DNA of 64,000 nucleotides from Sphyrna mokarran (Eukaryota). Position 1 is the stretch's first letter, and every line of letters starts with the position of its first letter. Location of the stretch: positions 106,888,001 to 106,952,000 of the forward strand of contig JAGIQG010000001.1 of assembly GCA_024679065.1 (NCBI GenBank), read 5' to 3'. Of the stretch, positions 12,745 through 64,000 are shown piece by piece. A model generated the notes under the pieces. It did no database searches, had not been told where the DNA came from, and was given only the letters and a program-made list of their open reading frames with translations. A program made the position numbers and the translations under genes.

Positions 12745-12845
12745 GGCTTGTGGGTTACTATCAAATAAACTGGTTGGACTTTAACCTGGTGTTGTGAGAC
12801 TTCTTACTGTGTTTACCCCAGTCAATGCCAGCATCTCCATATCAC
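12745..12845 (+). mobile_element. PLE (family A) 3'-terminal fragment inserted in Rex1 APE domain
   Basis: aaataaactggttggactttaacctggtgttgtgagacttctt...gcatctccatatca, flanked by 9-bp direct repeat gtgctctgt (12736-12744, 12846-12854). Confidence 0.85.
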
Positions 12846-13644: not shown

Positions 13645-13710
13645 GTGAGGTGTTGTGAGAATTCTCACTGTGCTTACCCCAGTCCAACGTCGGCATCTCC
13701 CTGTCATGGC
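13645..13710 (+). mobile_element. PLE (family A) 3' tip inserted in Rex1
   Basis: ggtgttgtgagaattctcactgtgcttaccccagtccaacgtcggcatctccctgtcatg matches the family A terminus. Confidence 0.75.
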
Positions 13711-15658
13711 TATATAAGAAAGCCAGATATGATCTACGGAGATCCACCAAAGATACCAAAGGACAGTACCGGACTAAGTTAGAATGCCAGGCTAGTCAGA
13801 GAGACTCCCGACTATGGCAAGGTCTGCAAGCCATAACAGACTACAAGGCAGGTAAAAACACTGGCTCCAATGCACCCCTCCCCAGTGAGCTCAAAGCATT
13901 CTACGCCCGTTTTCAGCAAGAGGTCAGTGAGAGCACGCCCTTTGTCCTGGAAGCCTCTGATGAAGCTGTCACCATTGCTGATGTCAGAACAGCCTTCTCA
14001 AAAGTCAGCTACTGAAAGCGACTGGCCCAGTAGAGTTCCCGGATGAGCACTCAGGCCTTGTGCGGACCAGTTGGCAGTGGTATTTGCAGATATCTTTAAC
14101 CTCTCTTTACGTGAATCTGAGGTCCTGACAACCATTATTTCTGTACCAAAGAAAGGCCAGGCAGTATGCCTTAATGGCTATTGTCCGGTGGCTCTGACGT
14201 CCATCATTATGAAGTGCTTTGAAAGCTTAGCCATGGTACAGATCAATTCCTGCCTGCCAGACTGCCTGGATCCACTAGAGTATGCATGCCACTGTAACAG
14301 CTTCACAACAGACGCTATCTCCCTGGCCCTGCACTCAACCTTGGAATACATTGATAACAAGGACACCTACGTCAGACTCCTATTCACAGATTACAGCTCA
14401 GCCTTTAACACCATTATTCCTACAACACTCATCTCCAAACTTCATGGCCTGGGGCTTGGCTCGTCCGTCCACGACTGGATCCTAAACTCCCTAACTCACA
14501 GACCAATCAGTAAGGATAGGCAACAACATCTTCTTCACAATCATCCTCAATACCAATGCTCTGCAAGACTGTGTTCTCAGCCCTTCACCATATCCCTTAT
14601 ACACCTATGACTGTGTGGCCAAATTCCCCTTCAACTCAATTTTCAAGTTTCCTGATGACACCACCGTCATGGGCCAGATCTCATTTAATGACAAGACACA
14701 GTACAGGAAAACGAAACAGAATCTGGTGAACTGGTGCAACAACGATAATCTCTCCTTCAATGTCAACAAAATGAAGGAGATGGTCATCGACTTCAGGAAG
14801 CGAAGTGAAAGGCATACATCTGCCTATATCAATGGGGACAAAGAAGAAATGATTGAGAGCTTCAGGTTTTTAGGTGTCCAGATCAGCAGCAGTACGTTCT
14901 GGTCCCTCCATGTGGATGCTATAGTTAAGAAAGCCTAGCAACACCTCTTTCTCAGGAGACTAAGGAAATTTGGCATGTCCGCTTCAACTTCCACCAACTT
15001 TTACAGATGCACAAGGAAAGCATTATTTCTGGTTGTATCACAGTTTGGTATGGCTCCCGCTCAGCCCAAGACTGCAAGAAACTACAAAGGGTCATGAATG
15101 AAGCCCAGTCCATCATTCAAACCAGCCTCCTGCCCATTGACACTGTCTACCTTTCCAGCTACCTCAGAAAAGCAGCCAGCATAATTAAGGACTCCAGGCA
15201 CCCCAGACATTCTTCCTTCTACCTTCTTCCATGGAGAAAAAGATACAAAAGTCTGAGTATGCACACCAACCAACTAAAGAACAGCTTCTTCCCTGCTGCC
15301 ATCAGACTTTTGAGTAGGCTTAACTTGCATTAAGTTAATCTTTCTCTATACTCTAGCTATGGCTGTTCTTCTGCACTCCTTTCCGTCCCTATGTACGGTA
15401 TACTTTATCTGTATGGTGCACAAGAAACAACACTTTTCATTGTATATCAATCCAAGTGATAATAATAAATCAAAATAACAGCACAATAAAATGATTATTT
15501 GCTTTTTAAAATCTCATTGCTGGTTTGTGGGACATTTCATGTGCAGACTGCTCACTACTATTAACTACCTTATATCGTCAATATTTCAAAAGCTGTGGAG
15601 GGTTTTGGGGCATTGGGGCTGTGAAAGGCCTCATGTAAATGGGAATGGGCTCCCTTTC

Positions 15659-22411: not shown

Positions 22412-23665
22412 TCAAAGAACAAAGAAAATGACAGCACAGGAACAGGACATTTAGGCCTCCAAATCTGCACCAACCATGCTGCCCAACTGAACTAAAACCC
22501 TCTACCCTTCGAGGGACTACATCCCTCTATTCCCATCCTATTCATGTATTTGTCAAGATGCCCCTTAAAATTCACTACTGAATCTGCTTCCACTACCTCC
22601 CCTGATAATGAGTTCCAGGCAACCACCACCCTTTGTGTAAAGTATCTGCCTTGTACATCTCCTTTAAACCTTGGCACTTGCATCTTAAATCTGTGCCCCC
22701 TAGTAATTGATTCTGCCACCCGGGGAAAAATGCTTCTGACTATTCACTCTATCCATGCCTCTCATAATCTTGTAGTCTTCTATCAGGTCGCCCCTCAACA
22801 TCTGTGTTTCAGTGAGAACAAACCAAGTTTTTCTAACCTCTCCTCATAGCTAATGCCCTCCACACTAGGCGACATCCTAGTAAATATTTTCTGTACCCTC
22901 TCCAAAGCCTCCACATCCTTCTGGTAGCGTGGCCACCAGAAGTGAATATTATATTCCAAGTGTGGCTAACTAAGGTTCTATAAAGCTGTAACATGACTTG
23001 CCGATTTTTAAACTCAATGCCCTGAACTATGAAGGCAAGCATGCCGGATACCTTCTTGAGTGCCTTTACCTGTACACTGAGATCCCTTTGTCTAACAATG
23101 CTCTTAAGGGTTCTGCCCTTTACTGTATATTTCCAATCTGGATTAGACCTTACAAAATGCATTACCTCACATTTATCCAGATTAAACTCCATCTGCCACC
23201 TCTCTGCCCAAGTCTCCGACTGATTTATATCCTGCTGTATCCTCTTATGGTCCTCATCATATCTGCAAATCCACTAACCTTTGTGCCATCCGCAAACTTA
23301 CTAATCAAACCAGTTACATTTTCCTCCAAATGATTTATATATATTACAAAGAGCAAAGGTCCCAGCACTGACCCCTGAAGAATGCCACTTGTCACAGTCC
23401 TCCATTCAGAAACACACCCTTCCACTGCTAACCTCAGTCTTCTTTGACTTAGCCAGTTTTGTGTCAACCTTTCCAGCTCACGTCTGATTCCACGCAACTT
23501 CATCTTCTGCACCAGTCTGCCATGTCAAAAGCCATGTAGACAACATCTACTGCCCTACTCTCATCAATCATCTTTGTCACTTCCTCGAAAAACTCGGTCA
23601 AGTTCGTGAGACATGACCTCCCCTTCACAATACGATGTTGCCTCTCACTAATAAGTCCACTTGTT
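22412..23665 (-). mobile_element. CR1/HER1 LINE 3' portion (RT, decayed)
   Basis: GRSCLTNLTEFFEEVT, VTSGILQGSVLGPLLFVIYIN, KFADGTK, MEFNLDKCEVMHF, FTQRVVVAWNSL. (TTCTTTG)-type tail at 22412. Confidence 0.92.
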
Positions 23666-23710: not shown

Positions 23711-24053
23711 TCATAGAAAAATATCACAGAAATCCTACAGTACAGAAAAAGGCCACTGAGCCCATTGAGACTGCACCGACCACAATCCACCCAAGTCCTA
23801 CCCCCTACATCCATCAACTAATCCCTCTAACCTGCGCATCTCAGGACACTAAGGGGCAATATTAGCATGGTCAATCAACCTAACCTGCACATGTTTGGAC
23901 TGTGGGAGGAAACCGGAGTACCTGGAGGAAACACTCATAGATATGAGGAGAATGTGCAAACTCCATACAGACAGTGACCCAAGCCAGGAATTGAATCCAG
24001 GTCCCTGGAGTTGTGAAGTAGCAATGCTAATCACTGTGCTATTGTGCCGCCCC
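23711..24053 (-). mobile_element. HE1-like V-SINE, full length
   Basis: 5' ggggcggcacaatagcacagtgattagc, V-domain, CR1-like tail. Confidence 0.9.
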
Positions 24054-24143
24054 TGTTTTTGCTTCCTTTTCAGCTACAAAGCCTTGAGGCCAGTCACAGT
24101 TTACCCACAATTTTCAAATTCTCTCTGGCCAGGAGATGTACCA

Positions 24144-25397
24144 CAACATTAGGTTAAAGTCCAACAGGTTTATTTGGTAGTAAATACCACTAGCATTTGG
24201 AACGCTGTTCCTTCTTCAAGTGAGCGGAGAGTCCTGATCACAAACAGGGCATAAAAAGGCACACACAGTTTACAGAATACTGATTAGAATGCGAGTCTTC
24301 GCAGCTAACCTGCTATTCAAGTCTTAAAGGTGCAGACAACGTGAGTGGAGATGGCATTATGCATAGTTTAAAGAGATGCGTATTGTCTCCAGACAGGACA
24401 GTAAGTGAGATGTTGCAATTTCAGGCAAGTCATGGGGGGTTACTGATAGTGTGACATGAACCCAAGATCCAGGTTGAGGCCGTCCTCATGTGTGCGGAAC
24501 TTAGCTATCAGTTTCTGCTCAGTGACTCTGTGCTGTCATATGTCATGAAGGCCACCTTTGAGAATATCTACCCAATGATCAGAATGCCGCTGAAGTGTTT
24601 GCCAACAGGAAGGGAACAGTCTTGCCTGGTGATTGTTGAACATCTGCATAGTACATTAGGGGGGGATCATACAGACGGTACGACAGCAGATGAATGAACA
24701 CTGCTCAACAATCACCAGGCAAGATTGTTCTCTTCCTGTTGGCGAACACTTCAGTGGTCACGGCATTTGGCCTCTGATCTTCAGGTAAAATTCTCCAAAG
24801 TGGCCTTCATGACATATGACAGCACAGAGTCGCTGAGTAGAAACTGATAGCCAGGTTCCGCACACGTGAGCATGGCCTTAACCTGGATCTTGGATTCATG
24901 TCACACTATCAGTAACCCCCATGACTTGCCTGAAATTGCAACATCTCACTTACTGTCCTGTCTGGAGACAATACATATCTCTTTAATCTATGCTCAATGC
25001 TATCTGCACTCACATTGTCTGCACCTTTAAGACTTGAATAGTAGATTAGCTGTAAAGACTCATATTCTAATCAATATTCTGTAAACTGTGTGTGCCTTTA
25101 CGTGCCTTGTTTGTGATCAGAACTCTCCATTCACCTGAAGAAAGAACAGCGTTCCAAATGCTAGTTGTGTTTACTACCAAATAAACCTGTTGTACTTTAA
25201 CCTAATGTCAATCTCCTGGCCAGAGAAGATTTGAAAATTGTGAGTAAACTGTGACTGGCATCAAGGCCTTGTTGCTGAAAAGGGAGCAAAAACAGGGGCG
25301 GCCCGATAGCACAGTGGTTAAACCTGTGGACTTTAACCTGGTGTTGTGAGACTTCTTATTGTGTTCATCCCAGTTCAACGCCAGCATCTCCACGTCA
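24144..25397. mobile_element. Palindromic Penelope-like element (GIY-YIG C-terminus + 3' UTR, inverted-duplicated)
   Basis: Plus arm decodes YI(G)..QTVRQQMNEHCSTITRQDCSLPVGEHFSGH...KLIARFRTREHGLNLDLGFMSHYQ*, a PLE GIY-YIG endonuclease. The minus arm is its reverse complement. Imperfect 14-bp TSD caggagatgtacca/caggaaatgtgcca. Confidence 0.9.
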
Positions 25398-25499
25398 CAG
25401 GAAATGTGCCAGAGGACTGAAGATAGCTCATTGCGCCATTATTCAAGAAGGGAAATGGAGAAAAACAAGGTAATTGTACGTCAGCAAGTCGAACACCTG

Positions 25500-25930
25500 C
25501 GGTGGGGAAATTATTGGGAAAAAATTCTGAGGGACAGAATTAATCTCCACTTGGAGAGGTTAAGGGTTAATTGAGGATAGTTAGCATGGCTTTGTCAGGG
25601 GGTGATATGAATAGAGGGTTAATAACCATGAGGTACAGATTAAGGTAAGGGGCAAGAGATTTAGAAGGGGTTTGAGGAAAAGCTATTGTACTCAGAAGGT
25701 GGTGGGAATCTGAACTCACTGCCTAAAAGAACGGTATAGTTTGATGGCTCAATGGTACATTTCGTGACCCTCATAACATTTAAGCGGCATTTAGATGAAC
25801 ACATGAAATGCTATACATACAAAGCTATGGACCAAGTACTGGAAAGTGGGATTAGAATAAATAGGTGTTTAATGGCCAGCGCAGGCACAATAGGCCAAAG
25901 AGCCTCTTTCTGTGCTGTAAAACTCTGTAA
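25500..25930 (+). mobile_element. CR1 LINE fragment with internal deletion
   Basis: GKLLGKILRDRINLHLE then QHGFVRG-like sequence joined directly to 3' end motifs (cagaaggtggtgggaatctg..., ggccaaagagcctctttctgtgctgta). Confidence 0.7.
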
Positions 25931-26786
25931 AGTAGCACAGAGCAGTGATTTAAAGTAGAACTTTAGGGAAGCTCAATCCCATTGCATACGATGCATCTAC
26001 CAATGGAGACATCAAGACATGGCCATTTTGAAAAAGCTTTCCTGTGCAAAAAATATGAAAGCAGCTGAATGACAGGAAACAGAGAAGAGTGACGAATGGT
26101 CTGTTTTTTGGACTGAAGGATGGTATACAATGGGGTTTCCCCAGGATTCAGTGCTCTCCTTGATATATATTAACAACCCAGACTTGGGGTATATAGCACA
26201 ATTTCAAAATCTGCAGATGACATAAAAATTGGAAGTATGATGAAGTGTGAGGAGGAAATTGATAGATCACAACAGGATTTGGATAGGTAGGTGGAATAGC
26301 CAGACATGTAGCAAATAAAATTTAATGCAGAGAAATGTGAAGTGATACATTTTGGGGGAGGAATGAGGAAACACAGTGTAATATCAAGGGTTCAATTCTC
26401 AAGTGAGTGCAGGAAAAGATAGAGATCTTGGGGTATATGTATTCAAATTGTTGAAGGTAGATAAAAGGTTAATAAGGCACACAGGATCTTGGGCTTTATG
26501 AATAGAGGCAAAGAGTACAAAACAAGAACATGATGAACCTATAAAACAATGGTTCAGTTTCCACTGCAGTAATATAACAAATTCTGACTACCACACTTTA
26601 GAATTGATGTGAAGACTTTAGAGTGGATGCTGAAAAGATTTACAAAAATTGTTCCAAGGATGAGGGACTTCATTAATGTGAACAAACTAGAGAAACAGGA
26701 CTATTCTTTCAGAGAAACGGTCAAGAGGAGGTTTAACAGAGGCATTCAAATCATGAGCAGTGATTTCTGCTGGCAGAAGGATTGAA

Positions 26787-27381
26787 CAGAGTACGAAGTC
26801 TCACAACACCAGGTTAAAGTCCAACAGGTTTATTTGATAGCAAACGCCACTATCTTTTGGGGCTTTGCCCCTTCGTCAGGTGAGTGGGGAGTTCTGATCA
26901 CAAACAGGGCAGATAAAGGTCCACACTCAGCTTGCAAAATACTGATTAAAATGCGAGTCTTTACAGCTAATCAAGTCTTAAAGGTGCAGACAATGTGATT
27001 GGAGATAGCATTAAGCATAAGTTAAAGAGATGTGTATTGTCTCCAGACAGGACAGTAAGTGAGATGTTGCAAACCCAGGCAAGTCACGGGGGTACAAATA
27101 ATGTAACATGAGCCCAATATTCCGGGGTTGAGGCTGTCCTCACGTGTGCGGAACTTGGCTATCAGTCTCTGCTCAGCAACTCTGCGCTGTCCTATGTTGT
27201 GAAAGGCGCCTTGGAGAACGTTTATCCGAAGATCAGAGGCCAAATGCCTGTGACCACTGAAGTGTTTGCCAACAGGAAGAGGACAATCTTGCTACCAAGT
27301 AAACCTGTTAGACTTTAACCTAGTGTTGTGAGACTTCTTACGCGTTTACCCCAGTCCAACGCCGGCATCTCCACATCATGA
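26787..27381. mobile_element. PLE family A copy: inverted EN/3'UTR segment plus direct 3' tail
   Basis: Minus ORF 27022-27243 ASDLRINVLQG...QRRVAEQRLIAKFRTREDSLN (GIY-YIG C-terminus). Plus-strand tail 27292-27380. 13-bp TSD cagaaggattgaa (26774-26786, 27382-27394). Confidence 0.9.
26856..26890 (-). ncRNA. Minimal hammerhead ribozyme motif (mutated)
   Basis: cac-CTGACGA-A-GGGGC-aaa-GCCCC-AAAA-ga-TA-gtg. GAAA is changed to AAAA. Confidence 0.6.
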
Positions 27382-27438
27382 CAGAAGGATTGAAACCAGA
27401 GGACATTGTTTTAAGAAGGAACAACACGGGAAAACTTT

Positions 27439-38804: not shown

Positions 38805-38918
38805 CTCAGTAAGAATTTAGCAACACCAATTTATAATCCAACCGATTTATTTGATAGTAAAAACGCGAGCTTTCGACTCCTGTGTCTTCCTCAGGCAAAT
38901 GCAGTGTTCATATCATGA
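38805..38918 (-). mobile_element. 114-bp PLE-derived insertion (family C)
   Basis: Reverse strand tcaaataaatcggttggattataaattggtgttgct is homologous to the family A tail. Perfect 12-bp TSD ctaatagtttat (38793-38804, 38919-38930). Confidence 0.8.
38864..38897 (-). ncRNA. Minimal hammerhead ribozyme motif, intact core
   Basis: tgc-CTGAGGA-A-GAC-acagga-GTC-GAAA-gc-TC-gcg: stem I tgc/gcg, stem II GAC/GTC, palindromic AGCT at stem III. Confidence 0.7.
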
Positions 38919-40719: not shown

Positions 40720-40878
40720 GTGGAATTGTAAATTGAGTTTGTGCCTTTATATGCCCTGTTTGTGATCAAAACTCCCACCCACCTGATGAAGGAACAGCCA
40801 GTTCCAAAAGCCAGTGGCGCTTGCTACAAATAAACCTGTTGGTCTTTAACCTGGTATTGTGAGACTTTCTTACTGCAC
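40720..40878 (+). mobile_element. PLE family A 3' fragment with mutated hammerhead
   Basis: gccctgtttgtgatca...cac-CTGATGA-A-GGAAC-agcca-GTTCC-AAAA-gc-CA-gtg...aaataaacctgttggtctttaacctgg. Confidence 0.85.
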
Positions 40879-42454: not shown

Positions 42455-43425
42455 AGAACATAGAACATTACAGCGCAGAACAGGCCCTTCGGCCTTCGAT
42501 GTTGCGCCGACCAATTATGAAAAAAGCAATGACCCTCCAAACTAAACCATTCCCTTCTCTTCCATAAACTTATCAACTAACCTCTTAAACGCCACCAAAC
42601 TTGGCGCATCTACAACTGCCGCAGGCAGGGCATTCCACTCCCTAACCACCCTCTGGGTAAAGAACCTACCTCTGATATCCGTCCTATAACTATCACCCCT
42701 TAATTTAAAGCTGTGTCCCCTCGTGCTAGCTTTCTCCATCCTAGGAAAAAGGCTATCACTGTCCACCCTATCTAAACCTCTAATCATCTTATATGTTTCA
42801 ATAAGGTCTCCTCTTAGCCGCCTTCTTTCTAACGAAAACAACCTCAAATCCCTCAGCCTCTCTTCATAAGACCTGCCCTCCATACCAGGCAACATCCTGG
42901 TAAACCTCCTCTGTACCCTCTCCAATGCCTCCACATCTTTCTTATAATGCGGGGACCAGAACTGCACACAATACTCCAAGTGTGGCCACACTAGAGTTTT
43001 GTACAGTTGCAACATGACGTTGCGGCTCCGAAATTCAATCCCCCTACCAATAAAAGCTAAGACTCCATATGCCTTCTTAACAACCTTATCGACTTGACTG
43101 CCTACTTTCAGGGATCTATGCACATATACACCAAGATCCTCTGTTCATCAACACTATTAAGAGTCCTACCATTAGCCCTATACTCTACACATTTGTTATT
43201 CCTGCCAAAGTGAATTACCTCACACTTTTCCACATTAAACTCCATTTGCCACCTCTCGGCCCAGCTCTGCAACTTGTCCAAGTCTCTCTGCAAACTATAA
43301 CACCCCTCTTCACTATCTACCACTCCACCGACTTTAGTGTCATCCGCAAATTTACTAATCCATCCTTCAATACCCTCATCCAGATCATTTATAAAAATTA
43401 CAAACAGCAGGGGCCCCAAAACAGA
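42455..43425 (-). mobile_element. Young 5'-truncated CR1/HER1 LINE
   Basis: GPLLFVIFINDLD...KFADDTK...FNVEKCEVIHFG (43108-43419), frameshifted into a stop-free 193-aa C-terminus (PHLEYCVQFWSP, LERRRLRGDLIE, FFTQRVVREWNALP). ttctatgttct tail. Confidence 0.95.
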
Positions 43426-43506
43426 CTCCTAATGGTGTCTACACCATTAATGGTGAGCAAAGCAGTAAAAACGATGCAGGATGTGTCCCTGGCTTAAAAC
43501 AACACA

Positions 43507-43541
43507 ATCCACCCCAATCCAACGCCGGCATCTTTACATCA
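43507..43541 (+). mobile_element. 35-bp PLE family A 3' tip
   Basis: accccaatccaacgccggcatctttacatca between perfect 13-bp direct repeats ttaaaacaacaca. Confidence 0.75.
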
Positions 43542-44054
43542 TTAAAACAACACATCCATTATGACATTCATAATCAATCTCCCATTCAGTGTCAACAAGT
43601 GAAAAAAGCAGCAGAGCTTAGCAGCATAGCCACATGATCTCAGCAGGCAAGGAGGCTTAGGGAAATAAACACAAGGTAAGAAAGAGTGAAGGAAGATGCT
43701 GCAGAATCCTTAAGTTTCATCCATGAGCAATGTCATAGGGGCACGGGTTGTTTCATTTTCACATCAGATACTTGTTCCAGTGGATTATCCATTGAGATGA
43801 CACCTTCCTAAACAATCACCAATGCTGCCCAATTTTACAGCTCACAATTGACAAATGTTTTTCTTTTAGCCAAACAGCAATGCTAATTGTGTTGTGAAAC
43901 ATTGTGCAAACAAAATGATTTAAATGTAAAACAACATTCGAATAATGTTTGGTATTTACAGAAGAGAGTTTTTGGACATGTTGGCTGGTAAAATTAAATC
44001 TATCCTTTATGTCTAATTCATGAAGCACAAAGCCCTACTGCTTTGCCTGACTAT

Positions 44055-63310: not shown

Positions 63311-63512
63311 CATGATGTGGAAATGCCGGCATTGGACTTGGGTGGGCACAGAGAGAAGTCTCACAACATCAGGTTAAAGTCCAACAGGTTTATTTGGAAT
63401 CACAAGCTTTCGGACTGCTGCTCCTTCACCACCTGATAAAGGAGCAGCGCTCTGAAAGCTCGTGATTCCAAATAAACCTGTTGGATTTTAACCTTGTTTT
63501 GTGAGACTTCTT
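63311..63512. mobile_element. ~200-bp fold-back PLE family A element
   Basis: Arms 63354-63428 and about 63437-63511 are reverse complements. Plus hammerhead motif cac-CTGATAA-A-GGAGC-agc-GCTCT-GAAA-gc-TC-gtg. 3' tip catgatgtggaaatgccggc on the left end. Confidence 0.9.
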
Positions 63513-64000
63513 ATCAAGTACAACTAAACTGATCGAAGTTTGGCAAGGTACATCATATTCATTTCTAATGGTCAGCTTCAATTGCAATTGGAAATGTATC
63601 AATTTAAGGAATTTACATTGATATATTAGTAATTAAAAAATAAAGAAGTACTCAATGGGCCAAAGGAAAATTCACTTTCTATTGACAACCCATTGGCTTT
63701 GTTATATTTTGCTTGAAGAACATCTTACCTGGGATTTTTCATTCCTGTTTATGATGAGTGGATGTGGCGGTGGGAATAGAAAATATCGTGAAAGTGAGTG
63801 CAGGATTGAATAGGGAAAGGGTCATGCCCAGGACTGCCTCTTGGCACTGCCCCCAGAACTACTCTGTGGCACTGTCTCAGCAGTGTTGGGGAGGGGGGGG
63901 GGAACAGTGTCAGTGAACCCTTTTGTGCTGAAGTGGTCATTAAAAATGGCAGCCCAATCCTCAAATGTCTAAGTTGCTGGCGGTGCAGGCAAATTAGAGG

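Follow-up and report, generated by a model that had tools for sequence, protein, structure and literature searches.

A Penelope-like insertion in the genome of Sphyrna mokarran holds, inside its own target-site duplication (TSD), an inverted copy of 110 nt of the host DNA that borders it on the left. It lies in a window of 64,000 nucleotides (the whole stretch of DNA analysed, in which all positions below are counted), made of repeat-rich animal DNA of ~40% G+C with LINE fragments, SINEs and several Penelope-like ends. The locus is a real, old and single rearrangement of a known insertion type, and the flank copy is its only unusual feature; the inverted, one-tailed shape is the one already published for Penelope insertions. 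We think it probable that a DNA template switch, acting after the insertion, used the left arm and its junction as template for the right arm and ran on into the flank for another 110 nt. The odds attached to this and to the rival explanations are matters of judgement and were not computed.

Layout and identity of the insertion

Two stretches of the locus (24028-24647 and 24686-25320) align as reverse complements, as the earlier note had claimed, in ungapped blocks of 91-92%, and this pairing is far above chance (blastn E reported as 0.0 across 1319 columns). The insertion target is a decayed LINE ORF2-like stretch, which we take to be LINE/CR1. Its left part (24054-24129, + strand) is followed by the left TSD copy of 14 bp (24130-24143, +), and the right TSD copy (25398-25411, +) is identical to it at 12 of 14 positions. 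The translation enters the left TSD copy and resumes in the right flank, so that the two flanks read as consecutive parts of one ORF2-like stretch (..SLWPGDVP on the left, GNVPED*R*LIAPLFKKG on the right). Because this reading frame continues across both flanks and is split by the insertion, it places the insertion at 24144-25397 independently, and the bounds first proposed from the TSD stand. On the far left lies a SINE of the tRNA-head type that is frequent in the window (23721-24053, - strand; located by blastn to other window copies and by alignment with six), with its 5' end at ~24053; its first ~25 nt are the part copied into the right arm.

Inside the TSD, the left arm (24144-24647, -) is a 5'-truncated Penelope-like 3' end that comprises the putative GIY-YIG C-terminus, the 3' UTR and a decayed hammerhead-like motif, without a tail. 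It stops ~15 nt before the usual tail-less end of the element, taken as 25362-25365 from loose contig ends. A 38-nt spacer (24648-24685, +), which by tblastn is sense element from the YIG..QTLRQRMNEH region, continues directly into the right arm (24686-25208, +), a sense element 3' end that has its decay in common with the left arm. The decayed hammerhead-like motif of the right arm (25132-25166, +) has its mirror copy at 24188-24222 (-), and the core is altered in both. The right arm is followed by the inverted copy of 24028-24137 (25211-25320, -, with 10 differences in 110) and by a tail piece of 77 nt (25321-25397, +), in which ~27 nt of the element end are repeated ahead of the tail. The TSD at 24130-24143 also resembles the usual tail-less end region, and the early stop of the left arm looks as though annealing to the target had replaced its last ~15 nt.

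A peptide of the neighbouring copy has one protein match among three candidates, a shark protein (P0002) at 76% identity, and four stretches of the arms agree with P0002 at 67-94%. P0002 itself matches Pfam GIY-YIG with an E-value of 0.017, which falls short of the curated threshold, and none of the three window peptides matched directly in the Pfam search. The copy is 5'-truncated and holds no reverse transcriptase sequence; the inverted arrangement with a 30-40-nt tail at one end is present, as is the target-site duplication (12/14), and a degenerate hammerhead-like motif occurs in both arms and in three other copies. Rfam gave no hammerhead match up to E 1, the hammerhead region has no significant fold, and the sole Rfam match was a sub-threshold miRNA that is explained by the hairpin. 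Exact-motif scans for further copies found none in metagenome contigs and none in viral contigs, and the scan of genome contigs returned a single match of 20 nt to the element end motif (L001 2001-2020, in a Bacteroidota MAG), which probably reflects chance or contamination.

The captured flank copy

The right arm departs from the element at 25208, copies 110 bp of the left flank and re-enters the element at 25321 through a 2-nt overlap, with 6 nt net missing at the copied left junction. This course out of the tail and back into it was described in the earlier note and is confirmed by alignment, the repeated element end measuring ~27 nt. The captured piece takes in 8 bases of the 14-bp TSD, ~76 nt from the LINE flank and ~25 nt of the SINE 5' end, and because it joins TSD bases to the end of the left arm, its template was the finished left junction. 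It also preserves SINE letters that have been lost from the left flank, such as the G at 25317 that most window copies carry. The suggested microhomology switch finds its 2-nt match at the return junction, but a match of that length is easily given by chance.

The 110-bp segment is foreign to the Penelope family, as had been supposed. Contigs from four sequencing runs (4 of the 23 listed) were aligned to 24630-25600, and depth over 25257-25289 was 17, 0, 5.4 and 2.7 in the four runs against ~10^5-10^6 on either side of the captured piece (for run X1, 682,510 at 25191-25223 and 5,084,555 at 25323-25355), which led us to reject the segment as a regular family part. All 15 joints listed (there are 345 others) omit the captured piece, jumping 135-142 nt across it, and family ends cluster at 25362-25365 and 25397. 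Transduction of the flank by the element, which the earlier note had envisaged, finds no support: at these depths the captured piece reaches at most single copy and no second location was found, although contigs drop rare variants, so that one or two extra copies are possible.

The same contigs separate family variants from local ones. An 8-bp segment that had been read as an insertion of this locus is absent from the copy at 26787 and common to both arms, but it is not private: it belongs to a major family form, since in 4/4 runs 98-100% of the depth has C at 25042 and 69-77% has G at 25045. The altered hammerhead core reported for both arms holds up, its T at 25159 being rare in the family (A in 98-99%). 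One X1 contig is identical to 25345-25546 (0 differences), and one X6 contig (25371-25547, 12 differences and 5 gaps) may represent the orthologous right junction, reaching 27 nt into the tail where 31 are needed. A contig of run X23 (depth 154) joins 25347 to 25217, that is, an element end to a LINE position 1 base from the left junction; its joint letters differ from those of the left junction, and it is possibly an independent insertion at a preferred LINE site or an amplified composite. No orthologous contig spanning the locus, and no pre-capture allele, was seen in the contigs of the four runs.

Arm divergence and the origin of the copy

The arms diverged by ~9% after copying. Substitutions fall on 46/500 aligned element positions and 10/110 flank positions, are mostly transitions, are accompanied by indels and are spread uniformly over six segments that include the flank (chi-square p = 0.55); 27 changes are private to the right arm, 17 to the left arm and 2 are unpolarised. 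The left arm also lacks 11, 6 and 6 nt, all at most 80 nt from the turn, and each of these three deletions is flanked by 1-3 nt of direct microhomology. At the turn, P0002 residues 224-257 match 24660-24761 on the + strand (82%, tblastn), running from the spacer into the right arm, and the left-arm match to P0002 begins only at residue 239. A single intra-strand fold-back from the left arm predicts an antisense spacer, whereas 24648-24685 is sense; with the spacer oriented as the right arm, such a fold-back cannot yield the whole structure. From the earlier proposal of fold-back synthesis with a template switch we retain a DNA template switch over the left junction, and give up the single fold-back and the element as the likely copier.

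Both arms share changes that the family majority lacks, one of them absent from the tail piece of the insertion too. AA at 25204-5 is present in both arms but in none of nine other window element ends (two have one A), and the tail piece of the same insertion carries the family GG instead. The variant table, of sites where many family contigs depart from the right arm (40 of its 95 rows listed, 35 of them in the arm), adds, among the 35 listed arm sites, 22 that are private to the right arm, 11 that are common to both arms and 2 others. The 11 common non-majority letters range from 24702 to 25159: at three sites (24911, 24935 and 25159) the family letter reaches at least 86% in 4/4 runs, two letters (24815 and 24942) occur in the 26787 copy too, and another six, several of them in CpG positions, are moderately frequent in the family. 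Parallel mutation would be expected to produce ~0.6-1.5 common hits. Seven common coding changes were examined (six defined by the family table, the seventh by P0002 together with the 26787 copy), and with one stop, five missense and one silent change they look, in sequence, like decay.

This common decay suggests that copying took place some time after insertion. If the common changes arose at the locus itself, copying came well after insertion; if they came from a decayed source copy, it was possibly made at integration. Such a source could supply the common letters, as a subfamily below ~1% of family depth is invisible here, and the even divergence of the arms is just as compatible with copying at integration. 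With 2/14 differences the TSD clock carries no information, and the tail clock favours a later event only by ~2:1. We did not rely on the CpG concordance between the arms (7 same-direction vs 1 opposite, p = 0.035), because four of the seven sites are defined by the 26787 copy alone; the idea that the tail piece begins at the presumed hammerhead cut site was also dropped.

Under the later template switch that we prefer, an endonuclease-bearing Penelope-like element would first have entered the old LINE, leaving the 14-bp TSD, two inverted arms and a tail on the right; this architecture is observed and its mechanism is taken from the literature. The inserted copy would then have decayed in place until a growing strand, made in host replication or in repair, changed template to the left arm, was extended in reverse along that arm, across the sealed left junction and over 110 nt of flank, and then rejoined the original tail piece via the 2-nt match, the ~9% divergence between the arms accruing afterwards. 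The copying is read from the alignment; its timing and enzyme we infer, host replication or repair being a more likely copier than the element. The ancestor may have been a palindrome of two long arms, the right of which was then overwritten (type 3-2-1-4 of the four-point model), or an insertion with a long left and a short right arm, as at 26787 (type 3-1-2-4, with the spacer inverted), and the copied tract could measure anywhere from ~140 to 630 nt. Switches of either type are on record (Loytynoja and Goldman, 2017; PMC5453318). Two further points count against this later switch: all three junctions sit where integration leaves free ends, and the events described in PMC5453318 are short, making a tract of 140-630 nt an extrapolation.

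An origin during integration we hold to be unlikely overall. Both target strands would have primed reverse transcription, and a free end would have folded back, been extended through the new left junction into the flank and then been joined to the tail cDNA; the long arm would stem from a decayed source transcript mobilised in trans and the tail piece from another RNA or from the pLTR. The Penelope protein does cut and extend both strands and is predicted to act as a dimer (PMC11167929), L1 foldback copies of upstream flank (52-220 bp) occur in ~0.3% of cases (PMC10191854), and templated flank DNA is described at three L1 insertions (PMC11702581). At the locus, breakpoints fall at the turn and where the tail piece begins, the three microhomology-flanked deletions beside the turn suggest error-prone restart synthesis, and the left TSD resembles the usual element start region (57/5000 random window 14-mers score as well). 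The price of this explanation is a dead template with a stop codon and a broken hammerhead core, and a second template or two adjacent errors to account for AA vs GG; moreover, no listed long arm piece is closer than ~89%, in a list biased to long, divergent contigs. The general form of the idea, that a folded-back end is at times extended across the new junction as part of Penelope integration itself, parking host DNA inside the TSD, we regard as doubtful. Were it true, it would provide a first step of host-DNA capture, as in the Pen1_Av spacers: the parked DNA would sit upstream of the tail, where reverse transcription starts, and later transcripts would carry the flank.

Two further explanations have much lower standing. 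A sense transcript reading out of the left arm would look exactly like the right arm plus the capture, and such a transcript, with 110 nt of flank as a 3' transduction, might have been reverse-transcribed into the AT-rich pLTR of the same insertion; AT-rich DNA within its own pLTR is a substrate of the endonuclease (PMC11167929), and the order of body, host spacer and pLTR-tail recalls Pen1_Av (PMC3846280). This RNA-mediated re-insertion is nevertheless highly improbable in our judgement, for the left arm has no tail region, where reverse transcription begins, return to this one locus is improbable when family targets are so numerous, and A-to-G is not clearly in excess in the right arm (4/27 private changes). 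An assembly or library artefact in the form of a fold-back chimera is scarcely credible. It would account for the lack of bridging at 25208/25211, 25320/25321 and the centre (none of the 32 pieces listed, with 184,191 others) and for the X1 depth of 17 at 25257-25289, roughly a single copy against the two expected from the flank plus its inverted copy; a chimera would, however, be near-identical to its own template, whereas these arms differ at 46/500 and 10/110 sites, mostly by transitions and with indels, and the capture keeps SINE letters missing from the left flank.

Known systems and other copies in the window

Penelope insertions already described in print take the form of 5'-truncated copies, inverted, with a tail on one side (Arkhipova et al., 2013, PMC3846280; Craig et al., 2021, PMC8557442), and in vitro the Penelope protein primes on either strand, at two start sites between which the tail lies (PMC11167929). 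The insertion resembles these inverted Penelope-like insertions in its 5'-truncated inverted arms, one-sided short tail and TSD, and probably in its hammerhead-like motif and putative C-terminal GIY-YIG remnant. Unlike the insertions that these papers describe, it holds its own left junction and flank, inverted, in one arm, and its arms have locus-level decay in common. Searches of the literature, made in listings and the opening lines of abstracts and covering few subscription papers, returned no Penelope copy that holds its own inverted flank; a term search of 10.64898/2026.07.22.740005 gave one match, in its reference list. L1 foldback inversion (Nam et al., 2023; PMC10191854) also places inverted upstream flank inside the insertion, and its range of 52-220 bp includes 110 bp; here, unlike there, the copy runs through the left end of the element, its source is 1.07 kb away and it was probably made after integration. 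With four-point template switches (PMC5453318) the locus shares a reverse-complement middle fragment that is taken from nearby and makes or extends an inverted repeat and, with type 3-1-2-4, an inverted spacer, but at 140-630 nt its tract exceeds those of the short events studied there. Pen1_Av (PMC3846280) has the element body, host DNA and terminal pLTR in the same order; its spacers measure 0.9-1.5 kb and lie in direct-orientation, mostly intact copies, whereas here 110 bp from a local source lie in a dead copy.

The locus is a dead fossil with no function indicated. If transcribed, the arms are predicted to form the long hairpin that the earlier note expected (-1011 kcal/mol in a computed RNA fold), as would be expected of any such repeat. 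How inverted Penelope ends are built and how host DNA is captured are still described as open questions (PMC8557442; PMC11167929), and a flank copy inside the TSD is a footprint for which genomes can be searched. Recurrence in young copies would make it a component of integration and a path to transduction; restriction to old copies with common decay would let it gauge how the many Penelope palindromes of shark-like genomes seed later rearrangements. A single old locus decides neither reading.

The window holds other copies of the same kind. A second inverted insertion of the same family, in plain version, lies at 26771-27394 (element 26787-27378), with a left arm of ~500 nt, a right arm of ~90 nt with the tail and a 16-bp TSD matching at 15/16. 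Decayed LINE ORF2-like reading frames, presumably LINE, lie at 14047-15333, 22833-23273 and 42542-43497. Further short element ends occur at 12755-12845 (with a 9-10-bp TSD), 13649-13708, 38821-38915, 40727-40875 and 43511-43542. A short, near-symmetric inverted insertion of a related subfamily (63311-63514) has its tail on the left and turns at the hammerhead-like motif with a few unpaired sense bases.
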